From the NCBI GenBank assembly GCA_044892525.1, contig CM097885.1:32738001-32802000 (forward strand): 64,000 nucleotides of DNA, given 5' to 3'. Position numbers and translations under genes: made by a program. Of the stretch, positions 6,801 through 45,073 are shown piece by piece. Under the pieces are notes generated by a model, which worked only from the letters and a program-made list of their open reading frames with translations, made no database searches and had not been told where the DNA came from. This stretch comes from Schmidtea polychroa. Its lineage: Eukaryota. Within the stretch, counting starts at the first letter, position 1. Every line of letters begins with the position of its first letter.

Positions 6801-7539
6801 AAAAATTAAAAATTTTAAAATTTTTCTAAGTCCATTTAACGAATTACTTTATAGAAAATTTTCAAAGTCAAAACACGTTTCAATACTACGTTTGCAAATG
6901 TCTGTTACACATGCATTTGCAAATGTCTTTGTTACTCATGCATTTGCATTGCATATGTCTTTGTATTACACACCTTAAGGATAGAAAAATATTTCTAAGC
7001 GAGATCTAAAGTGAATGTGTGTAAAGGGCAATAAATAAGGGTAAAATCAAAATTTTTTAAGAAAATACATGTAATTTGATTAAAATTTATGAAAACTATA
7101 TATATATATGTTTTATTTTGGGCAGATAATCTATGTGTGTCTGTATATGAAAACATTGATAAGGAGCAATAAATATCAAATCAAATCTCTTATGTTTTAC
7201 ATATAAATATATTAACCAATCAGAATCATAACCAGTATTAGTATAAATAAAACAGAATATTTAAAATTAATGTACAATGTCAAAATCAAATTTTGCAGAA
7301 AACATCTTAAAAGGTTTGGTTAATGAGAATATCGCACAAAGCCTCAGTTTCCTAGTTAAACAAACTGAGAAAATCATTGAGGGAAACCATGTCGACTACC
7401 AAACCATGCTTGATATAGAATGCCTGGAGACGAAGAAATTTTATTTCAATAGGATTTTCGACTGTCTATTCGACGACCAAATGAGTGGACCAGAATAATC
7501 ATAGGTTTTACCTATATGAAGATTATTATAGAAAAAAGT
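6740..7539. repeat. Left arm of ~0.8-kb inverted repeat (partner 10277-11157)
   Basis: Near-identical reverse complement; same peptides appear on opposite strands (MRSKIKNF..., CLETKKFYFNRIF...). Confidence 0.95.
7277..7539 (+). pseudogene. 5' part of Bcl-2-like gene A (frameshifted, truncated copy)
   Basis: Copy of exon 1 of 10018-10540; has CAA at codon 42 but a 1-bp deletion (ATGAGTGG vs ATGAAGTGG) before the BH1-like motif, and ends at the IR boundary. Confidence 0.75.
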
Positions 7540-10017: not shown

Positions 10018-10540
10018 TTAACTTTTATTTAAATATTTAAACATTACATATAATACAACAACTCCCAAGGCTAATCGCATATAACTTTTGACTTTTGCGT
10101 TGGCTTGCTCTATTTCTTGTGCGTTCTGGGCAAGTTCGACTAGTGTGTGCCATCCACCATTGGCATCGATCCATGGCGAAAACTTGGATTTGACTATCTA
10201 CAAATTAATATTAATAATAATAATAATAATAATTTACTTCTTGAGACCACAGATAATAATGGTCAACATCGTATAGACTTTTTTCTATAATAATCTTCAT
10301 ATAGGTAAAACCTATGATTATTCTGGTCCACTTCATTTGGTCGTCGAATAGACAGTCGAAAATCCTATTGAAATAAAATTTCTTCGTCTCCAGGCATTCT
10401 ATAACAAGCATGGTTTAGTAGTCGACATGGTTTCCCTCAATGATTTTCTCAGTTTGTTTAACTAGGAAACTGAGGCTTTGTGCGATATTCTCATTAACCA
10501 AACCTTTTAAGATGTTTTCTGCAAAATTTGATTTTGACAT
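10018..10540 (-). pseudogene. Bcl-2-family gene A (exons 10540-10238, 10197-10018; 160 aa; one premature TAA)
   Basis: BH1-like LFDDQMKWTRIIIGFTY, BH2 SPWIDANGGWHTLV, tail anchor MRLALGVVVLYVMFKYL; 40-nt GTAAAT...TTGTAG phase-0 intron; TAA at 10415-10417 is CAA in the left-arm copy. Confidence 0.85.
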
Positions 10541-13038: not shown

Positions 13039-13368
13039 TTATTTACAAAACAATAATACAGTAATCAATACTCCGGTACCACATAATGTCAACTTTAAAA
13101 TATTGGTTAGAGTTTCTTCTGCTTTTCGTGCATCTTCATCGTTCTTGCGATGATCTTTTACCGTTTACCAATTTCCATTTTGATGAACCAATGAGCATAT
13201 TTTATTTCTAATAATCTAAAAATAATAATTAATATTATATAGATAATTGTTAAATCAATTACTTCGACTGACAATTTGAAATAATTCTGATAGAAAAAAT
13301 TGAGATTTGAAAGGAATCTGCTTCGTATACATTTAAGCCACTATGACGCATCTCCAGTTCATAACTGA
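13039..13368 (-). pseudogene. 3' half of Bcl-2-like gene B (truncated at tandem junction)
   Basis: Reverse complement of 32553-32881, with intron, WVHQNGNW motif and TM tail. Confidence 0.75.
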
Positions 13369-14810: not shown

Positions 14811-14812
<2 letters not shown>

Positions 14813-15168: not shown

Positions 15169-15207
<39 letters not shown>

Positions 15208-16657: not shown

Positions 16658-16690
<33 letters not shown>

Positions 16691-20010: not shown

Positions 20011-20681
20011 TTATTTAATTTAATTTTTTAATTTAAATTGTAATAAATTCAATAAAATATCTGATTTAACAATCACACAAAGATTGAATTCCTTACGACA
20101 GTTACATTATCTTCCTAAAGTTTCACAACTAGAGAAATCTGCCTTAGTGAATGGCGCAAAAATGTATTTTCATTCGCATAAAATAGACATATCTGTCGCT
20201 TTTCTATGCTATTGTTTATCATCAATCAACACGATTTAGTCCCTTTATACACAAGTTTTCTTTATAAAATCAACTCAATTTAATAATATAATTTCTGTTG
20301 TTACTTTGCTGTCAAAAATATTTATTTATTTATCAAACTGGATAATTAATTGTGTACTTTTTCAAAATTCATTAATTTGTATTTTTACGATTTCTCCTTT
20401 TAGGGTCCCCGATCAATTGGAAATTATTTGATACATGTTTGTTTTATTATGTGCAATCGATTTTCATTTCCCCCAAATTATATATTTATTGTTTTAATCG
20501 CAATTCAATCAATTAATTATTAATTAATTTACACAAATCTTACAAGTGTATAAAAGAGATATTAAGGAAATAAAATATAAAATACAAATATTTCATTCGA
20601 GTTAGAAATTTGCGGAATAATTATTAAATCATTAAATTTATTGTTTAAATTTCCATTTATTCTTCATTACCATAAGTTCAC

Positions 20682-21647
20682 ATGATGGAAAATAAAGATA
20701 TATTTGCAGATTCTAATGAAGATTTCTTCAAATACTTTGAAAAGACATTCGATAAACATATGATGACTCCTGAATTACTGAAATGTGGATTCGAAGAAGC
20801 ATTCTTGAAAACTCTTGCGAATGGAGCGAGGACTATGAAGCCATTCATCATTTATATGCATGATTCTAATAACGACAATCATGAGATATTTTTCATGAAA
20901 AATGTTTGCAATGAAATCATTTGTGAATATCTTCTTGAAGAAAATTGGCCTATTTGGCCTATAGATATTTCTGATATTAAAACAAAAAATGAATTTTTCA
21001 ATTTAATTGATAGTCGATTATATACAAATAGAATGTTTTCATACAAATTACCAATGTTGTTGATGTGTACCAAACAAGGAATATGTGAATTCATTCAAAC
21101 ATATATGTGTAGTGAGGATCCCATGATAATTGTTGGACAAATTTTCGATGCTGGGGGAGAATTCAAAATTGAAAAAGAATTGCAAATTTCAATTGCAAAT
21201 TCTAGAAGAGATAAATCTCTTTTAATGAAAAAAAAGAAACAGGCTATATTAGAAAAAGAAAGAGAAAGTCAAATACTTCAACAAAATATCATGTTGGAAG
21301 AACAAAAAAGGATAGAAAGAGAAAATCAAAGATTGATCGAAGAATCAAATCGAAATAATCTTATTGAATTTGCAAAGAATCAAATTGTGGACGTTTCTCC
21401 TTCATCGAATAATTTCACGTTTAGAATACGTTTACCAAACCAACAGACAATTGTGCGAGAATTCGGAGAATCACAAACTGTGAATGACTTACTCTACTTT
21501 ATTGAATCGAATAATTATTTGAGATCGGAAGTCAAAGTTATGTTTTCTTATCCGACCAGAAACATGTGCGAGATCGGTGACGTTTCGATCAAATTGAAAG
21601 ATTCAGGAGCAAACAGACGAGAAGTCATCAACATTCTCAAGCTCTAG
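20682..21647 (+). CDS. FAF1-like UAS-UBX protein, copy 2
   Basis: Protein identical to 11631-12596. Confidence 0.9.
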   Translation: MMENKDIFADSNEDFFKYFEKTFDKHMMTPELLKCGFEEAFLKTLANGARTMKPFIIYMHDSNNDNHEIFFMKNVCNEIICEYLLEENWPIWPIDISDIKTKNEFFNLIDSRLYTNRMFSYKLPMLLMCTKQGICEFIQTYMCSEDPMIIVGQIFDAGGEFKIEKELQISIANSRRDKSLLMKKKKQAILEKERESQILQQNIMLEEQKRIERENQRLIEESNRNNLIEFAKNQIVDVSPSSNNFTFRIRLPNQQTIVREFGESQTVNDLLYFIESNNYLRSEVKVMFSYPTRNMCEIGDVSIKLKDSGANRREVINILKL

Positions 21648-22089
21648 TAATGTTCATTTTCAATAATTGTTCGCAAATATTTTTCTTTGAAAGAAAAGCT
21701 TAACTATTATTCCCATTAATTAAGATTATAATTTATAAAACTTTACTTTTTCAAAATAATTTCCTTGAAATTTTGTTAATTTGTTATCATTAATTATGAT
21801 TATAATTCAGTTTAAAATAAGTAGTTAGTGGCCTTGCTCCTTCTCTGGGGAAATCAGTGTCAATGTGTAACACTGATTATAGTGAGTGGGTATTATGGTC
21901 TTATGAGTACGGGGATATGAGCCCACTGGGCCAACTCCCCGGATGATTTTTGCTTTTTTCCTAAAAATTATTATTTTTATTTATTTTTAAAGAATTTTTA
22001 TTTAATTTTTTATGTAAGTCAATCCAATTTAAAACAAAAAAAAAATATTAGAATAAAACAATATATTTTATAAAAACAATTTAAAACAA

Positions 22090-22419
22090 TTATTTACAAA
22101 ACAATAATACAGTAATCAATACTCCGGTACCACATAATGTCAACTTTAAAATATTGGTTAGAGTTTCTTCTGCTTTTCGTGCATCTTCATCGTTCTTGCG
22201 ATGATCTTTTACCGTTTACCAATTTCCATTTTGATGAACCAATGAGCATATTTTATTTCTAATAATCTAAAAATAATAATTAATATTATATAGATAATTG
22301 TTAAATCAATTACTTCGACTGACAATTTGAAATAATTCTGATAGAAAAAATTGAGATTTGAAAGGAATCTGCTTCGTATACATTTAAGCCACTATGACGC
22401 ATCTCCAGTTCATAACTGA
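22090..22419 (-). pseudogene. 3' half of Bcl-2-like gene B, unit 2
   Basis: Same as 13039-13368. Confidence 0.75.
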
Positions 22420-22445
22420 ATGATTTTCCGATTGCTGCGGAAAAG

Positions 22446-23519
22446 ATGTGCCCACCAAATTCTAAAGTTGAGAAGCTGATGCTCACGCATTGGCCGAAGA
22501 AGAACCATGTTCTTCATTGGCGACTTCTCAAGTTGTATATAGAATTGGGGGCTATTATTAAAAATGTACATAGAGCAATTATATTTAAGCATGCACCCAT
22601 TTTAAAATCGTACATAGACAAAAACACTAATTTGAGAGCCAATTCTACATGCGAGCTGCAAAGAGATTTATATAAATTATTTAATAATAGTCTGTATGGG
22701 AAATCCGTGGAAAACCTTAAAAAACGGATGAATTTGAGGCTATGCAATTCAGCTGAAAAGATGATTGTATATGCTTCAAAACATACTTTCAGAAAATATA
22801 TCAAAATTGATGATGACTTGATAGCCGCCCATCTGGATAAAGATTCAATATGTTTAGACAGGCCTAGCTATATTGGTCAAACAGTGTTAGATTTGTCTAA
22901 ACTGAGGATGTATCAACTACAATATGTGGAATTGGCCAAGTACAGGTCTGAATTTAATTGTGATATAAATATCGTTGCCGGTGACACTGACTCCTTTTTC
23001 TTAGAGATAAAGCATTGTAAGCTTGACACTCTTTTGCCGGCAATGATTCGTGACAATCTTTTAGATACTAGCAACTATGACCCAACACATCCCTTATACT
23101 CGAGAAACCTTGATTCTGTGATAAGGAAGTTTAAATGTGAAAGTAAAGGTCTCGGGTATAAGGAGTGGTTTTTCTTAAGACCCAAGTGCTATAGTTTGTT
23201 AGGGGCTAAAGATCATTTAAAAGCAAAGGGAGTCAAATTGATAGGGACAAAGATAGGGCACCAATCTTATTTAAACTGCTACAACAACAGCGTAGTATAT
23301 ACGGTGCCACAAACTAGAATAGGGACGCGTAACCACCAGCTTCTTACGTTTAAAAATACCAAGATTGCATTGTCAAACAACGATGACAAACGATTATGGG
23401 CGAGGAAAAATTTCAGTCTCGCATATGGACATTATTTAGGAGTCGATGTTCCAGATGTTGATCAAGTAATTTCAGAAATTCGTCTACTATTAGAAGGTCT
23501 AAGTCCAGATTTCAATTAG
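22446..23519 (+). pseudogene. polB: Protein-primed PolB C-terminal fragment, unit 2
   Basis: Same motifs as 13395-14468; four amino-acid differences (F/L, S/Y, I/N, L/S). Confidence 0.92.
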
Positions 23520-23681
23520 GCCAATGATGACAATGATATTGATATAGATGACGTATTGTTATCGAATTGATCTGTGATTTAATATATCTTTTAATGTCTT
23601 AATTTATTATTATTTTTATGAAAACTAATAATAATTTTGTATATCTCAGTAATAATAATAATAATAATATAAATAATGATG

Positions 23682-23758
<77 letters not shown>

Positions 23759-23781
23759 TAATGATAATAATAATAGTAATT

Positions 23782-23872
<91 letters not shown>

Positions 23873-25713
23873 CCTTGCGAGTTGTTGAGTGTGACCAGTA
23901 CCTTTGTGAGCAATACCCATAGGGGACAGAATATCTTGTAGGATAAACTCAGAGTATATATAATAATAATCCCTGTGTTTCAAAGACCTTTATTTTCAAA
24001 TAATAATATCTCTTGTCGGGAACTCTCGAATTTCAAATTAAAAAAAATGAACTTTACATTAAAAAATATGACCTTGAAAAGAATTTTAAAATTTTCCCCT
24101 AAAGGGGGGGGGTTGTGATCCAGCGGAGTCCTGATCTAGCGGTGCCCTATCTATCTACTTATTCGTAATGATAAAATAATAATAATAACAATAATAATAA
24201 AAAATAATAATATTAATATTAATAATGATAATAATAATAATAATAATAATAATAATATTAATATTCGTAATGATAAAATAATAATAATAACAATTATAAT
24301 AAAAAATAATAATATTAATATTAATAATGATAATAGTAATAATAATAATAAAAATAATAATAATATTTCAACAATCAGTTATTAACAACCAGCTACTAAT
24401 TATTTTTAACTAGGTGCTAACAAATAAATAACAAATACTTACAACATGATACCATGTAATAACTAACTCTCAACCAACCAAGTAAAAACAACCAAGTACT
24501 AACAACCAACTAAGTATTCTTTATTGTATTTTATCAAATGATTTTTAAATTAATTTTTTATCTGTCTTCAAAAATATTTTTAATTACAATCAGTAGAAAA
24601 ACCTTAATTATTGACAAGAAGAGCTTTAAATTCAAGTCATTAATTAATTTTTTTGATATTTATTATGAGTAATTTAAATTTTTACAATTATTTAATCAAT
24701 CTTTACCAAGTTATTGATGCTTTGAGTTCAATTAATTTTTCATCCAATTTTTTCAAGTGAAGAGCATTTTCTTTTAAAGATCAATTTGTTAGTACATAGT
24801 TGTTGGTTGTAAGTACTTGGTATCTAGTTGAAAATACGTATTCGTAAGTTACTGGTTCGATGATACTAAGTTGTTGGTATCTAGTACTTGGTACGATGTT
24901 GTTAACTGATTGTAATTACATAGATGTAGGTTGATATTTGTTAATTTCTCGATGGGTTTTTACTTGGTTGTTAGTACATGGTACTTGGTATCTGGTTGTT
25001 AGTACATGGTAGCTAGTGAATTGGGTATGTGGGGGTTGAGTGTTACCAATACCCTTACGACTAATACCATTACGACCAGTACTCTTATGACCAGTATCCT
25101 TAGGGGGTCAAAACATCCTGTCGGATAAACTCCGAGTATATATAATAAAATGAATCAATAATAACTATTTATTGAATGCAATTTTTACATTGCAATAATA
25201 GGTCAGTAGTAATCAATTAAAAGAAGAATGTTTTCTGAATAAAAATTAGAATTCAATAGTTTTTAATTGTAATTTTATCTTCAATTCCGCGTAGTGTTTT
25301 AAAGTAGTTGAGTTGACAATTATTTATTTTTGATGAAAATCATCATTTTTGTTAAATTTAGACATTTAGAAAAGGTTTTTCTACTGATTGTAATTAAAAA
25401 TATTTTTGAAGACAGATAAAAAATTAATTTAAAAATCATTTGATAAAATACAATAAAGAATACTTAGTTGGTTGTTAGTACTTGGTTGTTTTTACTTGGT
25501 TGGTTGAGAGTTAGTTATTACATGGTATCATGTTGTAAGTATTTGTTATTTATTTGTTAGCACCTAGTTAAAAATAATTAGTAGCTAGTTGTTGATAACT
25601 GATTGTTGAAATATTATTATTATTTTTATTACTATTATTACTATTATCATTATTAATATTAATATTATTATTTTTTATTATAATTGTTATTATTATTATT
25701 TTATCATTACGAA

Positions 25714-25746
<33 letters not shown>

Positions 25747-28527
25747 CATTATTATTATTATTATTATTATTAGTATTTTTTCATTACAATTATAATTTTT
25801 ATTATTGTTATTATTATTATTTTATCATTACGAATATTATTATTATCATTGAAATTTGCCTCTAAATTTATCTTTAAAAATTATTCCATAAAAATTATCT
25901 TAAAAATATTTTAATTCTCAAACACAAAAAAATTTAAAAATCTTACTTTAATTTACTTATTACATTACTTTACTTATTTAAAAATTATTACTTTAATTTA
26001 CTTATTTAACTTTAATTTAAAATTTTGAACCCAATAATTTACTTATTTAAAATTTTTAACTTTAATTTACTTATCTTTAATTTTCCTAATTATCCTTTAT
26101 TACATAATTTTACACCATAATTTACTTAACAACCAAATATAATCCTTATTTTCATATTTAACCAATAATTTCATGTGGTCATTGATTAATTGATGAAGAT
26201 TTGCATCTAAAATTAACATTGAAAATCCCAGAAAAACTTTCATCTTAAATTGACTTTAATTTTAATATTTTAGATCATTGATTACTTAATTTAAAAATTA
26301 AACATTAATTTAAAAATTAAACCAATATTTTCATGAGGTCACCTGGTATTTAGTTGACAGTGCTCAATATTATGTATCTTGAACTTGGTTGATAAATCTT
26401 AGTACCTGGTTGTTGTCGGTTGTAAGTACTTGATATCTGATACCTAGTTGCTGCTTGTTTTTGGTTGTTAGTACTTGGTATCTGGTAACTGGTTGTTAGT
26501 ATCTAGTTATAGGTATCTGGTTGTAAATACATGTTCGTATATTACTGGTTGATGACACTAAGTTGTTGGTATCTTGTACTTGGTAGTTAGTATCTGATTG
26601 TTGGTTTGTTGTTGAATTATTATTATTAAATATAATTATTAAAATTTGACTTTGAAAAAATATTTCATAAAAATTTCTTTTTAAAATTCACTTTAAAAAA
26701 TATTTCATTAAAATTTTTATTAAAAATTATCTTAAAAACTTATTTCATAAAAATTTTCATTAAAATTTATCTTAAAAAATTTTATTTCTCAGAAGCTGTT
26801 GGTTATTCAAACTTTTTGTTAAAAAATTTGAAAATCTTACTTTAATATACTCATTTAAAAATTATTACTTTAATTTACTTATTTAACTTTATTAAAAATT
26901 TTTGACCATTGGTTACTTAATTTTAAAATTTGAAAATTAATTAACTTTAATTTAACTTTAACTTCCCATCTAATCCAATAAATAAAAAAAATACTGATCA
27001 TTCAAGTTAATATAAATCAACTAAGATAATAAATTAATAAGAACTAGTAAATAAATGGTTTAGATTGAATAAATTAATTGAAATAAATTAATTTAAACTA
27101 TTTTTTAAGACACATGTATACTCAAGTTGATTGAGTGATTGATCAAATTATTCATTTACAATTATCAAATTTAACATTATCTTAGAAATAAATATCAAAA
27201 GAGACTGACTGATAACTAATGATAGCATCTAATAAATCAGTAAAATCTTTTAAATGACAATAATTGGTATAAGCGAATTTTCCAGTAAAATCATCTAAAA
27301 GCATCAAATTTCCCTGAAATAAATCTAACTTTAAAGATTAGTTTTTATCGATAAATACCCTTAAAAGGTTATATATTTCCCTCAGACTAATAAGATTCCA
27401 TAAAATCCCATTAAATGAATATAATTATATCTTTAATTCCTATTATCACACATATTTCACTAAAATCATCAAAAATCATTAACTCTAAACAATTTATAAA
27501 ATCTAATGATAAAACTAGTTATAATTAAAAATAATTAAATTTTTGTTCTACTCGAAATTAAAAAAAATTACATTTTCCCATCAAAACCCATCCCTCATTA
27601 AACCCAACCGACTAAATTCTCCCTTAACAAACATATATTCCCATCTTAACCGATTCCTCATTAAATCAAACCGACTATATCATCCTTAAAGATTCTAAAT
27701 TCCCATCTAAACTGATCTCTCATTAAATATTTTTACTTTTAAACATCAATATACATCCTTAATGTCCTTAAAGATTCCATCCACTTGAGCCCTTTAATAT
27801 ATCAATTCTCTAAAATCCATAGAAAATTCTTCAAAAATATGAATTTTATTTAATTGTTACAGACACCAAATATTCTTACATTGAAATAATTTAGTAGCTA
27901 TGTAGTAAAAGACCAATATTATTATTACTTTAATTTTCTTATTTAACTTTTATTTTAAAATTTGAAACTTAATTAACTTTAATTTAATTTTTTAGAACCT
28001 TAATTTACTATAATTCAAATATTTTAGACCATTGATTACTTGAATTAACTTATTTAGACCATAATTAACTCATTTGAACCCATTGATTATTTTAATTCAA
28101 TTATTAGACCCATCATTTACTTTAATTTAAAATTTGAACCTTAAATTACTTATTTGAGCCAATTCATTAGTTTAATTTTAAATCTTAGACCTTGATCTAC
28201 TTTAATTTAATTTTTTAGACCATAATTTACTGTAATTCAAAAATTTACCATGCTTTTTTAGCGAGAACCCTTTTTTGTATTAAAATTCTTAGGTTCCGTC
28301 GAGAGCTCCTCACTATAGTCTGAAAAAAATTTATTTGTATTGAAAAAAAAATTTTGTATTGAAAATCCCAGAAAAAAACATTGGAGCGTACGGCAACAAT
28401 TATGTAATCAAAAAAGCAAAAATGTCTACGGCAGCAATTATGTAATCAAAAGTTGCAACAATTTTACCCCCCCCCCCCCCCCCCCCCCCCTCCCGGTAAT
28501 TGTTGCCGTAAACTCCTAACTACCTGC

Positions 28528-29048
28528 TTTAAAGTATTCAAAGTTTTGACAGCTTTAGCTAAAGAATCATTCACAAATCGATGAGAACCAATGAATTTTA
28601 AACTAATTTTCCCTAAATGAGCTATCAATGAAATAAATTTTTCGGTTGTAATTGGAATACAACCTTAAGAACGGTTCTTAAATTTATTTAATCCATATTT
28701 AAGGATATGATGCATATCGTATCCTTTCAGGTTATGCAATACAATAGGTGTAATTTTATATGTTTTTCTATTTACATTACACGTGCTACAAGAAGCACCC
28801 AAATATTCCCCTGTAAAATGATCATGATTTCTAACAGGATCAACGATACTTTTCATACAAAGCTAGCAAAGAGTAGCACTATCATATTGCTGTTGCTCAA
28901 TATTAGTCAAATTTTTAATAGGGTTCCTAATAATTTTATAATAATAAGGTAGTACTTTATGTAAGGCAATATATCCTCTACAGCACTTAAACAATTTTCG
29001 ACGCAATCTAAACCTATAAACTGCTGATAAGATTTAGATCCATCGAAA
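28528..29048 (-). pseudogene. Second-lineage PolB fragment, unit 2
   Basis: Same as 19490-20010. Confidence 0.85.
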
Positions 29049-29237
29049 TTATTTAATTTAATTTTTTAATTTAAATTGTAATAAATTCAATAAAATATCT
29101 GATTTAACAATCACACAAAGATTGAATTCCTTACGACAGTTACATTATCTTCCTAAAGTTTCACAACTAGAGAAATCTGCCTTAGTGAATGGCGCAAAAA
29201 TGTATTTTCATTCGCATAAAATAGACATATCTGTCGC

Positions 29238-31001
29238 TTTTCTATGCTATTGTTTATCATCAATCAACACGATTTAGTCCCTTTATACACAAGTTTTCTT
29301 TATAAAATCAACTCAATTTAATAATATAATTTCTGTTGTTACTTTGCTGTCAAAAATATTTATTTATTTATCAAACTGGATAATTAATTGTGTACTTTTT
29401 CAAAATTCATTAATTTGTATTTTTACGATTTCTCCTTTTAGGGTCCCCGATCAATTGGAAATTATTTGATACATGTTTGTTTTATTATGTGCAATCGATT
29501 TTCATTTCCCCCAAATTATATATTTATTGTTTTAATCGCAATTCAATCAATTAATTATTAATTAATTTACACAAATCTTACAAGTGTATAAAAGAGATAT
29601 TAAGGAAATAAAATATAAAATACAAATATTTCATTCGAGTTAGAAATTTGCGGAATAATTATTAAATCATTAAATTTATTGTTTAAATTTCCATTTATTC
29701 TTCATTACCATAAGTTCACATGATGGAAAATAAAGATATATTTGCAGATTCTAATGAAGATTTCTTCAAATACTTTGAAAAGACATTCGATAAACATATG
29801 ATGACTCCTGAATTACTGAAATGTGGATTCGAAGAAGCATTCTTGAAAACTCTTGCGAATGGAGCGAGGACTATGAAGCCATTCATCATTTATATGCATG
29901 ATTCTAATAACGACAATCATGAGATATTTTTCATGAAAAATGTTTGCAATGAAATCATTTGTGAATATCTTCTTGAAGAAAATTGGCCTATTTGGCCTAT
30001 AGATATTTCTGATATTAAAACAAAAAATGAATTTTTCAATTTAATTGATAGTCGATTATATACAAATAGAATGTTTTCATACAAATTACCAATGTTGTTG
30101 ATGTGTACCAAACAAGGAATATGTGAATTCATTCAAACATATATGTGTAGTGAGGATCCCATGATAATTGTTGGACAAATTTTCGATGCTGGGGGAGAAT
30201 TCAAAATTGAAAAAGAATTGCAAATTTCAATTGCAAATTCTAGAAGAGATAAATCTCTTTTAATGAAAAAAAAGAAACAGGCTATATTAGAAAAAGAAAG
30301 AGAAAGTCAAATACTTCAACAAAATATCATGTTGGAAGAACAAAAAAGGATAGAAAGAGAAAATCAAAGATTGATCGAAGAATCAAATCGAAATAATCTT
30401 ATTGAATTTGCAAAGAATCAAATTGTGGACGTTTCTCCTTCATCGAATAATTTCACGTTTAGAATACGTTTACCAAACCAACAGACAATTGTGCGAGAAT
30501 TCGGAGAATCACAAACTGTGAATGACTTACTCTACTTTATTGAATCGAATAATTATTTGAGATCGGAAGTCAAAGTTATGTTTTCTTATCCGACCAGAAA
30601 CATGTGCGAGATCGGTGACGTTTCGATCAAATTGAAAGATTCAGGAGCAAACAGACGAGAAGTCATCAACATTCTCAAGCTCTAGTAATGTTCATTTTCA
30701 ATAATTGTTCGCAAATATTTTTCTTTGAAAGAAAAGCTTAACTATTATTCCCATTAATTAAGATTATAATTTATAAAACTTTACTTTTTCAAAATAATTT
30801 CCTTGAAATTTTGTTAATTTGTTATCATTAATTATGATTATAATTCAGTTTAAAATAAGTAGTTAGTGGCCTTGCTCCTTCTCTGGGGAAATCAGTGTCA
30901 ATGTGTAACACTGATTATAGTGAGTGGGTATTATGGTCTTATGAGTACGGGGATATGAGCCCACTGGGCCAACTCCCCGGATGATTTTTGCTTTTTTCCT
31001 A
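29238..31001 (+). repeat. Partial tandem unit 3
   Basis: Matches the unit start through GCTTTTTTCCTA, then diverges. Confidence 0.95.
29720..30685 (+). CDS. FAF1-like UAS-UBX protein, copy 3
   Basis: Identical protein. Confidence 0.9.
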   Translation: MMENKDIFADSNEDFFKYFEKTFDKHMMTPELLKCGFEEAFLKTLANGARTMKPFIIYMHDSNNDNHEIFFMKNVCNEIICEYLLEENWPIWPIDISDIKTKNEFFNLIDSRLYTNRMFSYKLPMLLMCTKQGICEFIQTYMCSEDPMIIVGQIFDAGGEFKIEKELQISIANSRRDKSLLMKKKKQAILEKERESQILQQNIMLEEQKRIERENQRLIEESNRNNLIEFAKNQIVDVSPSSNNFTFRIRLPNQQTIVREFGESQTVNDLLYFIESNNYLRSEVKVMFSYPTRNMCEIGDVSIKLKDSGANRREVINILKL

Positions 31002-31126
31002 GAAAACTGAGGATTTTTTGTAAGTCAATCCCATTTGTTTATTTTGTAAAATCGACTATAAAACTATGGATCCGCGAGGACAAAGACTTATTTTTATAGT
31101 TAACTATAGAGGTAAAATACACACAC

Positions 31127-31184: not shown

Positions 31185-32191
31185 AAATTTATCGAATATA
31201 AAAACAGCTCTCCACTGTATCAAAATTTGATTATTGAAAGTTCTTGACACTATATTTTTGCGAACAATCTCTCATTTTGAAGGGTTTTACTCAGGGTATC
31301 CGAATGTTTATTGTTGTGATCAATGGTAATTAAAGGTATGGCAAGGGTCATTTTTAAGTTTTTTTTGGATGGTCAAAATCAAAAAATAATATTTTTTAAA
31401 TTAAAGTCATGTCGAAAGAGGAATAAATTGTTGATGTGTAGTTAGAGTTGTGTTAGTTAGAGTTGCTCTACAATATGGTGCTATGAAGACCTTGAAGGTT
31501 CCACCATGGGTTAAAAATTTTGATTTTATTAAACATACCTTACCTAACCCTACAAGGTTTCACCAGGGTCGAAGGTCACCAAGTTCAAAATTCCAAAAAC
31601 TTAAAATTCTTAGAAATTTTTTCTGCACATTTTAATTTTAATTTTTAAAAAATTTTAAATGTTTTAAAAACTTATTAAAATAGTCATATTAGGTTCTAAT
31701 ATTATCATCCGATATGTCAGGTGAAAGAGGAGAATGATATCTATCGAATAACATATAAATCAATGTATTGTTATTTATATTAAAAAAAAATCAAAGAACA
31801 ATAAAATATATTTTCAAATTTAATAAACTTGACAAACCATTCAAATCATGTACAGTTATATATCGTTGAAAAGAGGAAGCAAAATCTATCGAATGACATA
31901 TTATTGTATGCATTATCATATACATTGAACAATATATTAAAATTAAAATTTTTAAAAATTTTAAAAATAAAGTTTTGATATGTGGTAGAGAATCAGAAAA
32001 CGAATATTTTTAATTAATAAAATTAATAAATTAAATTAATAAAAATTAATAAAAATTAAGAATTAATAAAAAAGTATATATTTTAATGTCCTTATTAATC
32101 ATGTTTTCGTTAATTATGCATTTATAATAGGCAACTTTATTATTCATGTACTTGTATTGCACGTGCCTTTATTATTCATACCTTAACACTC

Positions 32192-32304: not shown

Positions 32305-32354
32305 TACATTATTTGTATAAATGATGATTTATTATCAATATTTTTTTTATTTAA

Positions 32355-32881
32355 ATGAACTAAACCAATTTTATTATAAGTTTACTCAATGGAGTACTTT
32401 CAAATGAAGAAGAAAATAAAATGATTACAAGATTACAAACCGTGGTATCCTAAGCTGAGAAGATAACAAAAGAAAACCCTATTGATTTGTCTTATACTTT
32501 AAATCAGAAATCGATCGGATCAATGAAACTGGTACTTTCTTCTCTTTTCGAATCAGTTATGAACTGGACATGCGTCATAGTGGCTTAAATGTATATGAAG
32601 CAGATTCCCTTCAAATCTCAATTTTTTTATCAGAATTATTTCAAACTGTCATTCGAAGTAATTGATTTAACAATTATCTATATAATATTAATTATTATTT
32701 TTAGATTTTTAGAAATAAAATATGCTCATGGGTTCATCAAAATGGAAATTGGTAAACGGTAAAAGATCATCGCAAGAACGATGAAGATGCACGAAAAGCA
32801 GAAGAAACTCTAACCAATATTTTAAAGTTGACATTATGTGGTACCGGAGTATTGATTACTGTATTATTGTTTTGTAAATAA
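32355..32881 (+). pseudogene. Bcl-2-family gene B (exons 32355-32657, 32705-32881; four in-frame TAA, no frameshift)
   Basis: MN*TNFIISLLNG...LFESVMNWTCVIVA*MYMKQ (BH1-like)...FE|IFRNKICSWVHQNGNW*TV (BH2)...LKLTLCGTGVLITVLLFCK (TM); 47-nt phase-0 intron after codon 101, as in gene A. Confidence 0.8.
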
Positions 32882-35800
32882 TTGTTTTAAATTGTTTTTA
32901 TAAAATATATTGTTTTATTCTAATATTTTTTTTTGTTTTAAATTGGATTGACCTACATAAAAAATTAAATAAAAATTCTTTAAAAATAAATAAAAATAAT
33001 AATTTTTAGGAAAAAAGCAAACATCATCCGGGGAGTTGGCCCAGTGGGCTCATATCCCCGTACTCATAAGACCATAATACCCACTCACTATAATCAGTGT
33101 TACACATTGACACTGATTTCCCCAGAGAAGGAGCAAGGCCACTAACTACTTATTTTAAACTGAATTATAATCATAATTAATGATAACAAATTAACAAAAT
33201 TTCAAGGAAATTATTTTGAAAAAGTAAAGTTTTATAAATTATAATCATAATTAATGGGAATAATAGTTAAGCTTTTCTTTCAAAGAAAAATATTTGCGAA
33301 CAATTATTGAAAATGAACATTACTAGAGCTTGAGAATGTTGATGACTTCTCGTCTGTTTGCTCCTGAATCTTTCAATTTGATCGAAACGTCACCGATCTC
33401 GCACATGTTTCTGGTCGGATAAGAAAACATAACTTTGACTTCCGATCTCAAATAATTATTCGATTCAATAAAGTAGAGTAAGTCATTCACAGTTTGTGAT
33501 TCTCCGAATTCTCGCACAATTGTCTGTTGGTTTGGTAAACGTATTCTAAACGTGAAATTATTCGATGAAGGAGAAACGTCCACAATTTGATTCTTTGCAA
33601 ATTCAATAAGATTGTTTCGATTTGATTCTTCGATCAATCTTTGATTTTCTCTTTCTATCCTTTTTTGTTCTTCCAACATGATATTTTGTTGAAGTATTTG
33701 ACTTTCTCTTTCTTTTTCTAATATAGCCTGTTTCTTTTTTTTCATTAAAAGAGATTTATCTCTTCTAGAATTTGCAATTGAAATTTGCAATTCTTTTTCA
33801 ATTTTGAATTCTCCCCCAGCATCGAAAATTTGTCCAACAATTATCATGGGATCCTCACTACACATATATGTTTGAATGAATTCACATATTCCTTGTTTGG
33901 TACACATCAACAACATTGGTAATTTGTATGAAAACATTCTATTTGTATATAATCGACTATCAATTAAATTGAAAAATTCATTTTTTGTTTTAATATCAGA
34001 AATATCTATAGGCCAAATAGGCCAATTTTCTTCAAGAAGATATTCACAAATGATTTCATTGCAAACATTTTTCATGAAAAATATCTCATGATTGTCGTTA
34101 TTAGAATCATGCATATAAATGATGAATGGCTTCATAGTCCTCGCTCCATTCGCAAGAGTTTTCAAGAATGCTTCTTCGAATCCACATTTCAGTAATTCAG
34201 GAGTCATCATATGTTTATCGAATGTCTTTTCAAAGTATTTGAAGAAATCTTCATTAGAATCTGCAAATATATCTTTATTTTCCATCATGTGAACTTATGG
34301 TAATGAAGAATAAATGGAAATTTAAACAATAAATTTAATGATTTAATAATTATTCCGCAAATTTCTAACTCGAATGAAATATTTGTATTTTATATTTTAT
34401 TTCCTTAATATCTCTTTTATACACTTGTAAGATTTGTGTAAATTAATTAATAATTAATTGATTGAATTGCGATTAAAACAATAAATATATAATTTGGAGG
34501 AAATAAAAATCGATTGCACATAATAAAACAAACATGTATCAAATAATTTCCAATTGATCGGGGACCCTAAAAGGAGAAATCGTAAAAATACAAATTAATG
34601 AATTTTGAAAAAGTACACAATTAATTATCCAGTTTGATAAATAAATAAATATTTTTGACAGCAAAGTAACAACAGAAATTATATTATTAAATTGAGTTGA
34701 TTTTATAAAGAAAACTTGTGTATAAAGGGACTAAATCGTGTTGATTGATGATAAACAATAGCATAGAAAAGCGACAGATATGTCTATTTTATGCGAATGA
34801 AAATATATTTTTGCGCCATTCACTAAGGCAGATTTCTCTAGTTGTGAAACTTTAGGAAGATAATGTAACTGTCGTAAGGAATTCAATCTTTGTGTGATTG
34901 TTAAATCAGATATTTTATTGAATTTATTACAATTTAAATTAAAAAATTAAATTAAATAATTTCGATGGATCTAAATCTTATCAGCAGTTTATAGGTTTAG
35001 ATTGCGTCGAAAATTGTTTAAGTGCTGTAGAGGATATATTGCCTTACATAAAGTACTACCTTATTATTATAAAATTATTAGGAACCCTATTTATTGGATT
35101 AGATGGGAAGTTAAAGTTAAATTAAAGTTAATTAATTTTCAAATTTTAAAATTAAGTAACCAATGGTCAAAAATTTTTAATAAAGTTAAATAAGTAAATT
35201 AAAGTAATAATTTTTAAATGAGTATATTAAAGTAAGATTTTCAAATTTTTTAACAAAAAGTTTGAATAACCAACAGCTTCTGAGAAATAAAATTTTTTAA
35301 GATAAATTTTAATGAAAATTTTTATGAAATAAGTTTTTAAGATAATTTTTAATAAAAATTTTAATGAAATATTTTTTAAAGTGAATTTTAAAAAGAAATT
35401 TTTATGAAATATTTTTTCAAAGTCAAATTTTAATAATTATATTTAATAATAATAATTCAACAACAAACCAACAATCAGATACTAACTACCAAGTACAAGA
35501 TACCAACAACTTAGTGTCATCAACCAGTAATATACGAACATGTATTTACAACCAGATACCTATAACTAGATACTAACAACCAGTTACCAGATACCAAGTA
35601 CTAACAACCAAAAACAAGCAGCAACTAGGTATCAGATATCAAGTACTTACAACCGACAACAACCAGGTACTAAGATTTATCAACCAAGTTCAAGATACAT
35701 AATATTGAGCACTGTCAACTAAATACCAGGTGACCTCATGAAAATATTGGTTTAATTTTTAAATTAATGTTTAATTTTTAAATTAAGTAATCAATGATCT

Positions 35801-36319
35801 AAAATATTAAAATTAAAGTCAATTTAAGATGAAAGTTTTTCTGGGATTTTCAATGTTAATTTTAGATGCAAATCTTCATCAATTAATCAATGACCACATG
35901 AAATTATTGGTTAAATATGAAAATAAGGATTATATTTGGTTGTTAAGTAAATTATGGTGTAAAATTATGTAATAAAGGATAATTAGGAAAATTAAAGATA
36001 AGTAAATTAAAGTTAAAAATTTTAAATAAGTGAATTATTGGGTTCAAAATTTTAATTTAAAGTTAAATAAGTAAATTAAAGTAATAATTTTTAAATAAGT
36101 AAAGTAATGTAATAAGTAAATTAAAGTAAGATTTTTAAATTTTTTTGTGTTTGAGAATAAAAATATTTTTAAGATAATTTTTATGGAATAATTTTAAAAG
36201 ATAAATTTAGATGCAAATTTCAATGATAATAATAATATTCGTAATGATAAAATAATAATAATAACAATAATAAAAATTATAATTGTAATGAAAAAATACT
36301 AATAATAATAATAATAATG

Positions 36320-36352
<33 letters not shown>

Positions 36353-38150
36353 TTCGTAATGATAAAATAATAATAATAACAATTATAATAAAAAATAATA
36401 ATATTAATATTAATAATGATAATAGTAATAATAATAATAAAAATAATAATAATATTTCAACAATCAGTTATCAACAACCAGCTACTAATTATTTTTAACT
36501 AGGTGCTAACAAATAAATAACAAATACTTACAACATGATACCATGTAATAACTAACTCTCAACCAACCAAGTAAAAACAACCAAGTACTAACAACCAACT
36601 AAGTATTCTTTATTGTATTTTATCAAATGATTTTTAAAATAATTTTTTAACTGTCTTCAAAAATATTTTTAATTACAATCAGTAGAAAAACCTTTTCTAA
36701 ATGTCTAAATTTAACAAAAATGATGATTTTCATCAAAAATAAATAATTGTCAACTCAACTACTTTAAAACACTACGCGGAATTGAAGATAAAATTACAAT
36801 TAAAAACTATTGAATTCTAATTTTTATTCAGAAAACATTCTTCTTTTAATTGATTACTACTGACCTATTATTGCAATGTAAAAATTGCATTCAATAAATA
36901 GTTATTATTGATTCATTTTATTATATATACTCGGAGTTTATCCGACAGGATGTTTTGACCCCCTAAGGATACTGGTCATAAGAGTACTGGTCGTAATGGT
37001 ATTAGTCGTAAGGGTATTGGTAACACTCAACCCCCACATACCAAATTCACTAGCTACCATGTACTAACAACCAGATACCAAGTACCATGTACTAACAACC
37101 AAGTAAAAACCCATCGAGAAATTAACAAATATCAACCTACATCTATGTAATTACAATCAGTTAACAACATCGTACCAAGTACTAGATACCAACCACTTAG
37201 TATCATCGAACCAGTAACTTACGAATACGTATTTTCAACTAGATACCAAGTACTTACAACCAACAACTATGTACTAACAAATTGATCTTTAAAAGAAAAT
37301 GCTCTTCACTTGAAAAAATTGGATGAAAAATTAATTGAACTCAAGGCATCAATAACTTGGTAAAGATTGAATAAATAATTGTAAAAATTTAAATTACTCA
37401 AAATAAATATCAAAAGAATTAATTAATGACTTGAATTTAAAGCTCTTCTTGTCATTAATTAAGGTTTTTCTACTGATTGTAATTAAAAATATTTTTGAAG
37501 ACAGATAAAAAATTAATTTAAAAATCATTTGATAAAATACAATAAAGAATACTTAGTTGGTTGTTAGTACTTGGTTGTTTTTACTTGGTTGGTTGAGAGT
37601 TAGTTATTACATGGTATCATGTTGTAAGTATTTGTTATTTATTTGTTAGCACCTAGTTAAAAATAATTAGTAGCTGGTTGTTGATAACAGATTGTTGAAA
37701 TATTATTATTATTATTATTTTTATTTATTTATTATTACTATTATCATTATTAATATTAATATTATTATTTTTTATTATTATTGTTATTATTATTATTTTA
37801 TCATTACGAATAAGTAGATAGATAGGGCACCGCTAGATCAGGATTCCGCTGGATCACAACCCCCCCCCCCCCCTTAGGGGAAAATTTTAAAATTCTTTTC
37901 AAGGTCATATTTTTTAATGTAAAGTTCATTTTTTTTTAATTTGAAATTCGAGAGTTCCCGACAAGAGATATTATTATTTGAAAATAAAGGTCTTTGAAAC
38001 ACAGGGATTATTATTATATATACTCTGAGTTTATCCGACAAGAAATTCTGTCCCCTATGGGTATTGCTCACAAAGGTACTGGTCGCACTCAACAACTCGC
38101 AAGGGTATTATTATTATTATTATTATTATAATTATTATTAATATTATTAC

Positions 38151-38231
<81 letters not shown>

Positions 38232-38251
38232 AATTACTATTATTATTATCA

Positions 38252-38343
<92 letters not shown>

Positions 38344-38372
38344 TAATATTGTTATTATCATTATTTTTTTTT

Positions 38373-38440
<68 letters not shown>

Positions 38441-39673
38441 TGAGATATACAAAATTATTATTAGTTTTCATAAAAATAATAATAAATTAAGACATTAAAA
38501 GATATATTAAATCACAGATCAATTCGATAACAATACGTCATCTATATCAATATCATTGTCATCATTGGCCTCATTGAAATCTGGACTTAGACCTCCTAAT
38601 AGTGGACGAATTTCTGAAATTACTTGATCAACATCTGGAACATCGACTCCTAAATAATGTCCATATGCGAGACTGAAATTTTTCCTCACCCATAATCGTT
38701 TGTCATCGTTGTTTGACAATGCAATCTTGGTATTTTTAAACGTAAGATGCTGGTGGTTACGCGTCTCTATTCTAGTTTGTGGCACCGTATATACTACGCT
38801 GTTGTTGTAGCAGTCTAAATAAGACTGGTGCCCTATCTCTGTCCCTATCAATTTGACTCCCTTTGCTTTTAAATGATCTTTAGCCCCTAACAAATTATAG
38901 CACTTGGGTCTTAAGAAAACCCACTCCTTATACCCGAGACCTTTACTTTCACATTTAAACTTCCTTATCACAGAATCAAGGTTTCTCGAGTATAAGGGAT
39001 GTGTTGGGTCATAGTTGCTAGTATCTAAAAGATTGTCACGAATCATTGCCGGCAAAAGAGTGTCAAGCTTACAATGCTTTATCTCTAAGAAAAAGGAGTC
39101 AGTGTCACCGGCAACGACATTTATATCACTATTAAATTCAGACCTGTACTTGGCCAATTCCACATATTGTAGTTGATACATCCTCAGTTTAGACAAATCT
39201 AACACTGTTTGACCAATATAGCTAGGCCTGTCTAAACATATTGAATCTTTATCCAGATGGGCGGCTATCAAGTCATCATCAATTTTGATAGATTTTCTGA
39301 AAGTATGTTTTGAAGCATATACAATCATCTTTTCAGCTGAATTGCATAGCCTCAAATTCATCCGTTTTTTAAGGTTTTCCACGGATTTCCCATACAGACT
39401 ATTATTAAATAATTTATATAAATCTCTGTGCAGCTCGCATGTAGAATTGGCTCTCAAATTAGTGTTTTTGTCTATGTACGATTTAAAAATGGGTGCATGC
39501 TTAAATATAATTGCTCTATGTACATTTTTAATAATAGCCCCCAATTCTATATACAACTTGAGAAGTCGCCAATGAAGAACATGGTTCTTCTTCGGCCAAT
39601 GCGTGAGCATCAGCTTCTCAACTTTAGAATTTGGTGGTCACATCTTTTCTGGAGCAATCGGAAAATCATTCAG
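32553..39673 (-). repeat. Inverted copy of the tandem-unit sequence with a ~1.95-kb internal deletion (junction ~35088-35091)
   Basis: Reverse complement of unit segments; here Bcl-2 B and PolB both continue beyond the points where the tandem units break. Confidence 0.95.
33323..34288 (-). CDS. FAF1-like UAS-UBX protein, copy 4 (inverted)
   Basis: Identical protein; one synonymous AAT/AAC difference near 33614. Confidence 0.9.
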   Translation of the reverse strand: MMENKDIFADSNEDFFKYFEKTFDKHMMTPELLKCGFEEAFLKTLANGARTMKPFIIYMHDSNNDNHEIFFMKNVCNEIICEYLLEENWPIWPIDISDIKTKNEFFNLIDSRLYTNRMFSYKLPMLLMCTKQGICEFIQTYMCSEDPMIIVGQIFDAGGEFKIEKELQISIANSRRDKSLLMKKKKQAILEKERESQILQQNIMLEEQKRIERENQRLIEESNRNNLIEFAKNQIVDVSPSSNNFTFRIRLPNQQTIVREFGESQTVNDLLYFIESNNYLRSEVKVMFSYPTRNMCEIGDVSIKLKDSGANRREVINILKL

Positions 39674-42494
39674 AAACTCATGCAAACAATCAGGTATATC
39701 AATATCAACCTCCATAGTATAGCCATATGGAAGGATTTCAATATTTTCATTCATAAATTCATTCAAGACAGAATCAAGATCATCATACACCCATTCAAAG
39801 TCAGCATAAGGCAGATTTTGGCTTAAGGCTCAACCATACAAGTTATTAATATCAATATACAAGAGTTCTGTGCCTTCAGAACTTACAACATAATGTTTGT
39901 TAACAAATGTTAACCCACCCCGTATCCATCCTTCATAGAAATTAAACATTTCCATGTTCTGCAAAAGTTCTATAGGTTCCGTTAATGTCATAAGCGCAGA
40001 GGCCCATGACATACCGGGAATGCCATAGAAATTAAGAGGCTCAAGACCATTATATGCAATGGCCTTTTCATGGAATTGTTGAAAATAGTCTGCGAGGAGA
40101 AACACGTCTAATTTAAGGTAGATTAACATGTAATCTAACATGTTGTTGCAGTTTTGCTGAGTCCAAATAACTTGGGCTAATGCATACTCATCATTAGACA
40201 CAGAATCCCAGATCGGAGGTAGTTCAAGAGTCGATTTCAGAACCTCAAGCGATGTAGCAAAGTCATAAGGAAAGATACCTTTGGATCGAACAATTGCGCC
40301 ATCAAAAACAGAAGAAGTTAAAGGCAGATCGGAAAGAGTCTTAACCGCTTTTGCTAAAGATGAATTAACAAACTGCATGCTGTCAATAAAACGAACAAGC
40401 AATTTGTTAATGTACGCGATGAGGGAGATGAATTTCTCAGTAGTGGTCGGAATAATATTTAATTCCCAAGAAGGAAAATTATTCAAACCGTACTTCAAAA
40501 TATGATGGAGATCATACCCCCTCAAATTGTGAAAAACAACAGATAACTGTTTCTGAATTCGCCGAGACACATTACATTTCCTACAAGCAGCACCGAGATA
40601 CTTACCTGTGAAGTGGCAATGGTCTCTAACTCTATCTCTAATGAATTTTTTACAAAGGTAACAGGTTCTGGAATCTCTATATGCCCGCTGTTGAACGAAA
40701 GACAAGGTTTGCATGGGCTTTTTCCCATTAATTTCGTAATATGGCAGGACAATTGTGACAGCAATTTCTTCCACCTTACGCAAGAAAGACAACACACAAT
40801 CATCACCTACAAACTCATAATAAAATCTAGTGTTATTATAATTATTAATTAATAACATGCCTGCTGTTATTGGTAAGTGCTTTTGATGGTGTATTATATC
40901 CTCGGGTAAAATTGCCTCAAAATCGGCATATATCACGAATGGCGGGGTGATTGTCTTCGCATAATTTTGAAAAATTAAATTTTTCTCTTTAGGTAGGGTA
41001 TATAAAGTAGTACCTATCTGGTTCTTACTGCATAGTGCAACATGTACGTTAAATGCTTTTTCATGTCGAAAACCATTGAGAAAATGGGGACACCAGTTCA
41101 CTCTAATCCAAAGGCTGCAGGAGCTACTGGGATGTGAGTTCATTAATTTTTGTAAGTTAAAAACTGCGGTATAATGAAAATTATCACCTTCTTCCAATAA
41201 AAGTAAGTATATGGGTTCACCACCTATAACCTTAGATCGGTGAATAATATCTAAATGAGGATGATGTGGAATATAATTATCATCAATTACATTTTCATAA
41301 GGCTTACCTGGAGTCTTTTTATAAATTAAAACATTTATTGATAAATTTAAATCCTTATTTTTCCTTTCAAATTTAGGGATATCACATAATTTCATTGGGC
41401 AATCGGAAATGGGGTCAAAATTTAACTCGTCAAGATAATTTTCATAGGAACTAACTCTATTTCTATTTATATGTACAACATTACGTTTTAAAAGTGCTAA
41501 AATACTATATATAAAGCACATATCGTCGGTGTTTTAGACGTTTACTATTGCTTTTTTTGAATTTAAAGCCGCTGGGGTGGGGATATAACTATGTTCAGCT
41601 AACCTATTCATATGGGTAAATTTTATTAATATAAAATCTATCTCTTTGATTTTAACCACCCGCCATCCGCTACCCAAATATGTGAATTTTTCTATTTTCT
41701 CATTTAACTTAGTGATACCCTCTACTAGAAAATTATCTGAAAAAACCTCTGCATTATTAGAGAAAAAATTATCTCTAATTTCCCCATCTTTCTCAAACTG
41801 GATTAAAACGGTGAACTGAATTTTAACTGTGTCCATACCGTTTAGTTCGGTAATTAATTTATTTGTCATCTTATTTGTAATGAAAACTTGTACCAAGTTA
41901 TCCATATTCCATATTAAATCATAAATTCTTTCTAGTCCCCTTAAAATCTATCTCAATTTCAGGTTCATCGTCTATATCGATCGAACCGCCTATCTTATTA
42001 TTTACTGAACCACCTATTTGAATATTATTTAAATCACTTATTTGATCTATTTTTGTAATTTTAGAGGGGACACAAGACCCAAAACTAACAGCAGGCTATT
42101 TATTATTATTTAGAATATTATTTATTTTTGTATTTTGATTCGTATTTAGATTAGTATTATTTACATTATTATTTACATGTTTTGTATTATAATTATAATT
42201 TATAGGTTTTGTATTTATGTGTTTTGTAGTATTATGTATTGATTGTTGTATTTTGATAAACAATTTCTTTTTATTTAAAGAAAACAGATTTAAATGTGAT
42301 TTGTGAATATTATAAAACTCTATATATTTAATGCTGTGGGAAGTCTCGCATATTGGACATATAAAGTAGTTGATGCCATTGAATCTATGACCGTAGTATT
42401 TTTTCATATTTTTATGGCATATATTTGTGTGATCATTTGATGACATGCAGTAGCGTGGGTATAATTTACCTGATAAATTATAAATATATATCAA
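38519..42494 (-). pseudogene. polB: Full-length Polinton/Maverick-type protein-primed DNA polymerase B, disrupted
   Basis: ORFs 41534-41905, 39830-41521 and 38519-39610 share a frame, separated by stops at 41534, 39830 and ~39638; ORF 42096-42494 joins via two stops and a frameshift near 41905. Motifs GSGW, IYADFE, DHCHFTG (endonuclease VII), FHNLRGYD, YLKLDV, YIDINNLYG, KLFNNSLYGK, GDTDS. Confidence 0.95.
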
Positions 42495-44524: not shown

Positions 44525-45073
44525 TTAGGGATATCACATAATTTCATTGGGCAATAGGAAATGGGGTCAAAATTTAACTCGTCAAGATAATTTTCATAGG
44601 AATTAACTCTATTTCTATTTATATGTACAACATTACGTTTTAAAAGTGCTAAAATACTATATATAAAGCACATATCGTCGGTGTTTTTGACGTTTACTAT
44701 TGCTTTTTTAGAATTTAAAGCCGCTGGGGTGGGGATATAACTATGTTCAGCTAACCTATTCATATGGGTAAATTTTATTAATATAAAATCTATCTCTTTG
44801 ATTTTAACCACCCGCCATCCGCTACCCAAATATGTGAATTTTTCTATTTTCTCATTTAACTTAGTGATACCCTCTACTAGAAAATTATCTGAAAAAACCT
44901 CTGCATTATTAGAGAAAAAATTATCTCTAATTTCCCCATCTTTTTCAAACTGGATTAAAACGGTGAACTGAATTTTAACTGTGTCATCTTATTTGTAATG
45001 AAAACTTGTACCAAGTTATCTTTTTCCATATTAAATCATAAATTCTTTCTAGTCCCCTTAAAATCTATCTCAA
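44525..45073 (-). pseudogene. Duplicated N-terminal PolB fragment
   Basis: Copy of ~41373-41955 with a small deletion; reads NVKNTDDMCF where the main copy has a stop. Confidence 0.9.

Follow-up and report, generated by a model that had tools for sequence, protein, structure and literature searches.

A decayed Bcl-2-like gene of Schmidtea polychroa, probably cargo of a second Maverick/Polinton lineage, and its diverged counterpart in the same window

Two Bcl-2-like genes, here called gene A and gene B, lie in a 64,000-nucleotide stretch of Schmidtea polychroa DNA (contig CM097885.1; hereafter, the window). The window, eukaryotic in character and AT-rich, contains large duplications, both tandem and inverted. 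Both genes follow the same predicted two-exon plan at low sequence identity, and gene B raises two questions: whether it is still a gene in working order, and whether it arose from gene A within one mobile element, was captured separately from the host, or is the counterpart of gene A in another lineage of elements. The features under discussion are collected in Table 1.

Gene B, a broken homologue of gene A

The preliminary description of this DNA had presented gene B as a second, strongly diverged paralogue of gene A with an equal exon structure. It had overlooked four in-frame TAA stops, three of them in exon 1 (codons 3, 33, and 78, at 32361, 32451, and 32586) and one in exon 2 (codon 118, at 32753). 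Because of these stops, gene B lacks the open frame of a functional Bcl-2 gene and cannot encode the protein; it is a pseudogene. Gene A, which also has an exon 1 of 101 codons, carries a single in-frame TAA, at codon 42.

Random change of 10 to 15% on gene B codons predicts 2.8 to 4.2 stops, and four were seen. Most other copies of the gene differ from gene B at 28 sites, and these sites, picked from the 40 best-supported of 272 rows of family contigs, were distributed over first, second, and third codon positions as 10, 10, and 8. To judge from this pattern, the stops are ordinary damage resulting from neutral decay, which would inflate the distance of gene B from gene A.

All five breaks in genes A and B are TAA, which could suggest that TAA is decoded here as an amino acid, or that the stops are assembly errors, and that gene B is intact after all. 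Both genes, however, terminate in TAA, and both partial duplicates of the 3′ part of gene B carry its stops at codons 78 and 118. A sequencing-run contig over 32388-32822 spans three of the stops with only two differing letters (this run may be the source sample). Furthermore, the broken polymerase gene of the window carries one TAA and two TGA breaks, and where one copy in the window has TAA, sister copies are open; on these last two observations, TAA as a sense codon was rejected. Against this evidence, an intact gene B is hardly conceivable.

By alignment score, gene B is homologous to gene A. The spliced readings, aligned with X at stop positions, were identical at 45 of 167 columns, and none of 3000 shuffles scored as high (z 15.8 for global and 28.9 for local alignment). 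Compared exon by exon with BLASTP, the two genes were identical at 31 of 105 positions in exon 1 (E 1e-9) and at 14 of 56 in exon 2 (E 2e-9). The earlier claim that gene B aligns end to end with gene A is thus borne out: the alignment is significant, and all six motifs named in support of it are present.

Table 1. Positions of genes A and B, their partial copies, and associated features in the window
Feature	Position	Strand	Remarks
Gene B, exon 1	32355..32657	+	101 codons; BH1-like segment; ATG at 32355
Gene B, predicted intron	32658..32704	+	phase 0, GT..AG, 47 nt
Gene B, exon 2	32705..32881	+	BH2-like W-x3-NG-x-W; hydrophobic C-terminal tail; terminal stop
GTATAAAT box	32315..32322	+	TATA-like; 40 nt before the gene B ATG
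Gene B upstream segment	32101..32186	+	non-coding; homologous to the region upstream of gene A; probable sub-terminal (left-end) part of an element
Gene A	10018..10540	-	exon 1, 10540-10238; predicted 40-nt GT..AG intron, 10237-10198; exon 2, 10197-10018
Gene A upstream segment	10876..10958	-	matches the gene B upstream segment
Inverted partial copy of gene A	7277..7539	+	exon 1 and upstream region; frameshifted near codon 70
Partial duplicate of gene B 3′ part	13039..13368	-	from 32553 on; truncated by a DNA polymerase fragment; same stops (codons 78 and 118); further frameshift
Second partial duplicate of gene B 3′ part	22090..22419	-	identical to the first
FAF1/UBX gene	33323..34288	-	intact, intronless; convergent with gene B; neighbor, probably outside the element of gene B

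Bcl-2 membership and relatives

When the exons were scanned separately, those of gene B gave no match to the Pfam Bcl-2 family (PF00452), and exon 1 of gene A scored 17.6 bits, below the cut-off of 31.4. The link of gene B to Bcl-2 runs through relatives. These were environmental proteins from contigs of 0.5 to 1.6 kb, namely, seven exon-1-only ENA proteins (P0004-6 and P0008-11) and two intronless JGI proteins (P0007 and P0012). All share with A and B the subfamily signature W[TS], YM, and Y-x-x-W-S. The match of the ENA proteins ends at the exon boundary of A and B. Four aligned ENA proteins were 64 to 69% identical to A and 27 to 33% identical to B, and the JGI pair was 23 to 28% identical to both.

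P0007 passes the Pfam Bcl-2 cut-off (45.3 bits, E 1e-11). In a set of 10 sequences, a profile of the two independent proteins P0007 and P0012 scored spliced gene B at E 2e-17, better than both a cellular Bcl-2 and a herpesvirus vBcl-2. Profile-profile comparison (hhalign) gave a probability of 98.2% (E 6e-14). Sequence matches of the A/B/ENA profile in the PDB belonged to the Bcl-2 family in 30 of 31 cases, including A1 and Bak (best E 0.006), and for P0005, one of the ENA proteins, the Atlas gave Bcl-2 clusters at 0.93, which is a lead only. On these profile comparisons, gene B is a Bcl-2 homologue; its altered BH1 motif sets it apart from the canonical members of the family.

Genes A and B have in common with cellular multi-motif Bcl-2 proteins (PF00452; Bcl-xL, A1/Bfl-1, and Bak) a BH1-like segment, a BH2-like segment, and a hydrophobic tail. 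They differ in that the BH1 motif NWGR, intact in the cellular proteins, is [KN]WT in A and B, and in that gene B is broken and matches no Pfam model. In A, B, and the ENA proteins, Thr takes the place of the conserved Gly of BH1; the JGI pair has Ser there. Loss of this Gly abolishes pro-survival activity in Bcl-2 and in KSHV Bcl-2, according to a passage of PMC2836074. An intact protein of this family, with its BH1 Gly missing, may thus bind its partners differently from Bcl-2 and Bcl-xL. The BH2 segment W-x3-NG-x-W is present in both genes, with Asn in place of the second Gly in gene B. The best 19-residue hydropathy, as expected of a C-terminal membrane anchor, was 2.17 in gene B versus 1.42 in gene A.

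The N-terminal half, where BH3 and BH4 motifs would lie, aligned weakly to A1 and was modeled with low confidence in both structure models. The model of gene B exon 1 (pLDDT 49) was too poor and matched nothing. The P0007 model (pLDDT 58), whose alignment held two known-type Bcl-2 rows, matched Bcl-xL and Bcl-2 (best E 6e-4, TM 0.44 to 0.51). It also matched viral Bcl-2 proteins weakly, including the adintovirus Bcl2 A0A5H3CWZ2 (BFVD) at E 0.08.

The A/B/ENA alignment gave no relatives among 75 candidate stretches of viral contigs or 141 of metagenome contigs, and none were found in viral contigs for the TBP and polymerase of the window. With P0007 as query, the viral contigs yielded only a herpesvirus vBcl-2 (1 of 64 candidates; the same contig again, 1 of 53), and the phages yielded nothing. 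One unrelated cellular Bcl-2 was present among the matches listed for P0007 (596 candidates).

Predicted intron, upstream segment, and origin of the two genes

In both genes, the predicted intron is a phase-0 GT..AG intron with similar donor and acceptor context and a length not divisible by three. Joining the predicted exons puts the BH2 Trp at the 12-residue spacing seen in the intronless P0007 and P0012. All seven exon-1-only ENA proteins cease to match at the end of the exon; the next residue is Val in six of them, consistent with a GT donor, and Gly in one. Among the contigs of four sequencing runs (16 listed), no spliced joint was seen, and one contig of run X8, the RNA status of which is a guess, crosses the gene B intron unspliced. 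A weak joint, 32376-34331, which had 22 letters on one side, was set aside.

A conserved intron boundary of Bcl-2 genes, found from sponges to mouse, falls at the Trp of the BH2 GGW motif, as described in a passage of PMC8998228. This intron is absent in A and B, where BH2 runs on unbroken and the predicted intron lies 16 codons upstream. The predicted introns of A and B share this non-canonical site, at the same aligned column. The phase-0 position eight residues before the first BH2 Trp, reported in the preliminary description, is true of both genes. Its placement of the intron after codon 101 in both requires a qualification: the alignment column is the same, but the shared number is partly a coincidence produced by two offsetting 4-residue gaps.

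The two genes also share non-coding DNA. The segment at 32101-32186 matched 10958-10876 at 62 of 86 positions and scored 55.2 bits, compared with a maximum of 26.0 bits in 500 shuffles and 28.7 bits for the best unrelated tile among 252. Under the same composition-aware scoring, the coding DNA of A and B was at background (24 bits), as were the other upstream matches (19 to 23 bits). Only this scoring separated the segment; with plain +2/-3 scoring, the upstream regions did not stand out from AT-rich controls (42 versus 32 to 59). The GTATAAAT box likewise precedes gene A (10569-10576, minus strand) and the inverted partial copy of gene A (7241). It occurs eight times in the window, and three of these occurrences are the ones before A, the inverted copy, and B. 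The shared upstream segment consists of a TGCAT-rich 27-nt repeat, which we take to be reminiscent of the octamer (POU) sites in adenovirus origins.

Gene A lies at the end of a gene cluster that includes a TBP-like gene and adjoins repeats resembling an element end. Its flank is cut at 11149 and joined there to a copy of the UBX segment, a rearrangement junction. For gene B, 41.9-57 kb yielded no matching right-hand element end, and 31.0-32.3 kb lacked AGTAGT.

Taken together, the shared intron site, the BH1 change, the upstream segment, and the box are most simply explained by one capture followed by divergence of element families. With a probability of roughly 0.7, we consider gene B to be the decayed Bcl-2-like cargo of a second Maverick/Polinton lineage and the positional counterpart of gene A, both genes going back to one old capture.

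The preliminary description had proposed an old duplication within the element family. Its old common origin agrees with the shared intron site, the BH1 change, the 86-nt segment, and GTATAAAT. A duplication within one element fits less well than divergence of two lineages, since each gene lies behind its own left-end segment, and this arrangement, together with the cut flank of gene A, argues against two paralogues in a single element. A joint duplication of gene and promoter long ago, for instance to the two ends of one element, would also yield the shared upstream segment and box, and the window does show a left end duplicated with part of gene A. That duplication, however, left near-identical arms (A and its inverted copy are 97 to 99% alike), whereas A and B are ~27% identical. 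Moreover, A and B are 22 kb apart, with rearrangement junctions between them, and the flank of gene A ends at the junction with the UBX segment copy. We regard true paralogues in one element as unlikely.

If A and B had been captured independently, from related host genes with the intron already in place, the shared features would come from the host family. The intron is short, AT-rich, and GT-AG, that is, of cellular type, and intact vertebrate Mavericks are reported to be without introns in a passage of PMC8097293. The position of gene B in the tree is also weakly supported. In this tree of ten sequences, which was built without host genes, with two long branches as outgroups and with P0009-P0011 omitted as near-copies of P0004/P0008, the A, B, ENA, and JGI proteins formed a group with support of 97/93, apart from the herpesvirus vBcl-2 and one cellular Bcl-2; support for A, ENA, and B together was 56/61, and a grouping of B with the JGI pair was not rejected (p-AU 0.38). 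On the other hand, the shared non-coding segment adjoins the left-end repeats of gene A and is better conserved than the coding DNA, and the canonical cellular GGW intron described in PMC8998228 is missing from both genes. In addition, no named cellular or host protein was among the matches of the word-index searches (2, 3, and 5 matches) or of the full profile search (2 among 1.84 billion representatives). Separate captures appear to us about as improbable as paralogues within one element.

Under the single capture that we favor, an old Bcl-2 gene would have entered the left end of an ancestral element once. The element would then have diverged into families, the Bcl-2 genes of which are now ~27% identical and would have retained the intron site, the upstream segment, and the TATA-like box. 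The gene B copy would have inserted, or been stranded, at its present site, with loss of the rest of the element and neutral decay. Local inverted and tandem duplications would later have copied the 3′ part of gene B twice and left gene B facing UBX. In intact family members, the gene would be transcribed by host Pol II from the left-end promoter, and the short intron would be removed by the host spliceosome. Their product would be a tail-anchored protein of ~160 residues with a Bcl-2 fold, which, by analogy with viral Bcl-2, may restrain apoptosis where the element replicates.

Tentatively, and with distinctly less confidence, this could be extended to an old Bcl-2 subfamily peculiar to flatworm Mavericks. 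In such a subfamily, the BH2 intron would have been lost through an RNA step, a new spliceosomal intron would have been gained within the element, the BH1 Gly would have been replaced, and the intron and promoter segment would have been kept as the element split into families that are only ~27% identical.

Bcl-2 cargo in Mavericks and adintoviruses is already known. Bcl2 accessory homologues are stated for adintoviruses and animal Mavericks-Polintons in part of Starrett et al. 2021 (PMC8502044), where three labels of the supplementary maps read Bcl2, and anti-apoptotic homologues are reported in a passage of PMC11071296. Like A and B on the reading favored here, the adintovirus Bcl2 (passages of PMC8502044; A0A5H3CWZ2, from Branchiostoma) is a small Bcl-2-like accessory gene in a PolB-type virus-like animal element. 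Unlike it, A and B have a predicted spliceosomal intron and lack the BH1 Gly, two types that are ~27% identical occur in one genome, and gene B is dead. The main text of PMC8502044, as far as it was covered, has no passage on splicing of adintovirus Bcl2 genes, and we found no account of an intron-bearing Maverick Bcl-2 in the portion of the open-licence literature covered. An expansion of Mavericks in Dugesia is described in part of a preprint (10.64898/2025.12.11.693146). What is new here is a second, deeply diverged type of probable Bcl-2 cargo with the same non-canonical predicted intron, preserved in a dead copy.

The gene B locus itself carries little weight, because the copy is dead and Bcl-2 cargo is known. 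The shared intron and upstream segment would make both the capture and the intron older than the divergence of the element families. If host genes lack the intron site, this would amount to intron gain and long retention in a class of elements that, in vertebrates, is reported as intronless (a passage of PMC8097293). If the flatworm-Maverick subfamily is real, an intron-bearing, functionally rewired anti-death gene would have been kept by virus-like elements otherwise reported to be intronless. The second type would also offer a way to test how cell death is limited by abundant Mavericks in a host that probably depends on regenerating stem cells.

Copies, duplications, and neighbors of gene B

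Gene B is one decayed member of a multicopy family. Three DNA-like runs had 242, 578, and 354 contigs on 32320-34400, most of them less than 95% alike and 80 to 99% alike overall. Summed depth in run X1, which is a rough guide and not a copy number, was 723 to 1326 over exon 1 and 3632 to 11151 over exon 2, versus 47 for the window's own allele. By the same rough guide, summed depth over gene B was far above that over most of the UBX gene.

Gene B adjoins no Maverick core gene. The closest polymerase gene lies past UBX and other repeats, with its end 5.6 kb from gene B. Gene B could thus belong to a multicopy family of host pseudogenes or to a non-Maverick repeat that acquired the gene, and a small repeat with only the 3′ part could account for depth being far higher over exon 2 than over exon 1. 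The upstream region of gene B, however, is homologous to the element end at gene A, and the contigs of the sequencing runs show that the whole gene, exon 1 included, is multicopy. We consider a host or non-Maverick origin quite unlikely, more so than either of the alternatives above, and retain the second Maverick/Polinton lineage as the probable source of the family.

Contig depth at 32740-32879 in exon 2 exceeded that over exon 1 by several-fold to more than 40-fold in three runs. The excess reflects either a very abundant family that matches only there or a derivative that carries only this part of exon 2.

About 440 nt separate the end of gene B from the stop codon of UBX, which is on the minus strand. 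The convergence of the two genes pointed out in the preliminary description is accurate as geometry but does not look like a trait of the family, since the family contigs diverge behind 32919; depth falls after ~32950. The position of gene B facing UBX looks like a local accident.

Several duplications surround this site. Gene B is located in the 2-kb spacer of a 2.1-kb inverted repeat (28917-31006 and 33003-35091, with 6 mismatches). The region 11149-31006 consists of ~9-kb tandem units built largely from an inverted copy of 32553-39673. Depths in run X2, again a rough guide, rose from ~186 over the one-copy part to ~583 over the three-copy part and ~768 over the four-copy part, as expected if the duplication at 11149-31006 is real.

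The FAF1/UBX gene is present in four copies (11631-12596, 20682-21647, 29720-30685, and 33323-34288), all intact and intronless, and as a fragment at 45071-45516. The four copies differ by 0 to 1 of 966 nt, whereas the 500 nt just outside the arm show nine substitutions and two gaps relative to the duplicates. This near-identity suggests homogenization of the arms or selection on UBX. Extra contig depth over two conserved stretches suggests that further diverged UBX copies exist in the genome; the UBX family is either a host family or the cargo of another element.

At 6334-11157, the TBP-like gene and three small ORFs lie between inverted copies of the element end and of the 5′ part of gene A, and AAGGTCA repeats occur at 6348-6790 and 11093-11144. 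The broken polymerase gene (38519-41905, minus strand) is PolB-like, with ~1128 codons, three in-frame stops, and weak Pfam matches. Partial copies of it are present at 13365-14811, 22416-23871, and 44525-44985. Another polymerase is represented by a fragment at 19339-19818 and 28446-28856.

Giant LTR retrotransposons of planarians, named Burro, are described in a passage of PMC6431247 as carrying a BCL2-like module together with TRAF and BIR domains. Burro resembles the present case as a planarian mobile element with a Bcl-2-like module, and the window has TRAF and BIR genes at 61-64 kb; a Bcl-2 profile gave nothing better than E 7.8 at 57-64 kb. The two differ in that the BCL2-like domain of Burro is located within a polyprotein, whereas gene B is a free-standing two-exon gene. 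At 57295-63646 (minus strand) lies a series of TRAF (zinc finger, MATH), BIR, and coiled-coil ORFs that lacks introns and is strongly A-rich, and its list of domains overlaps that of the Burro elements.
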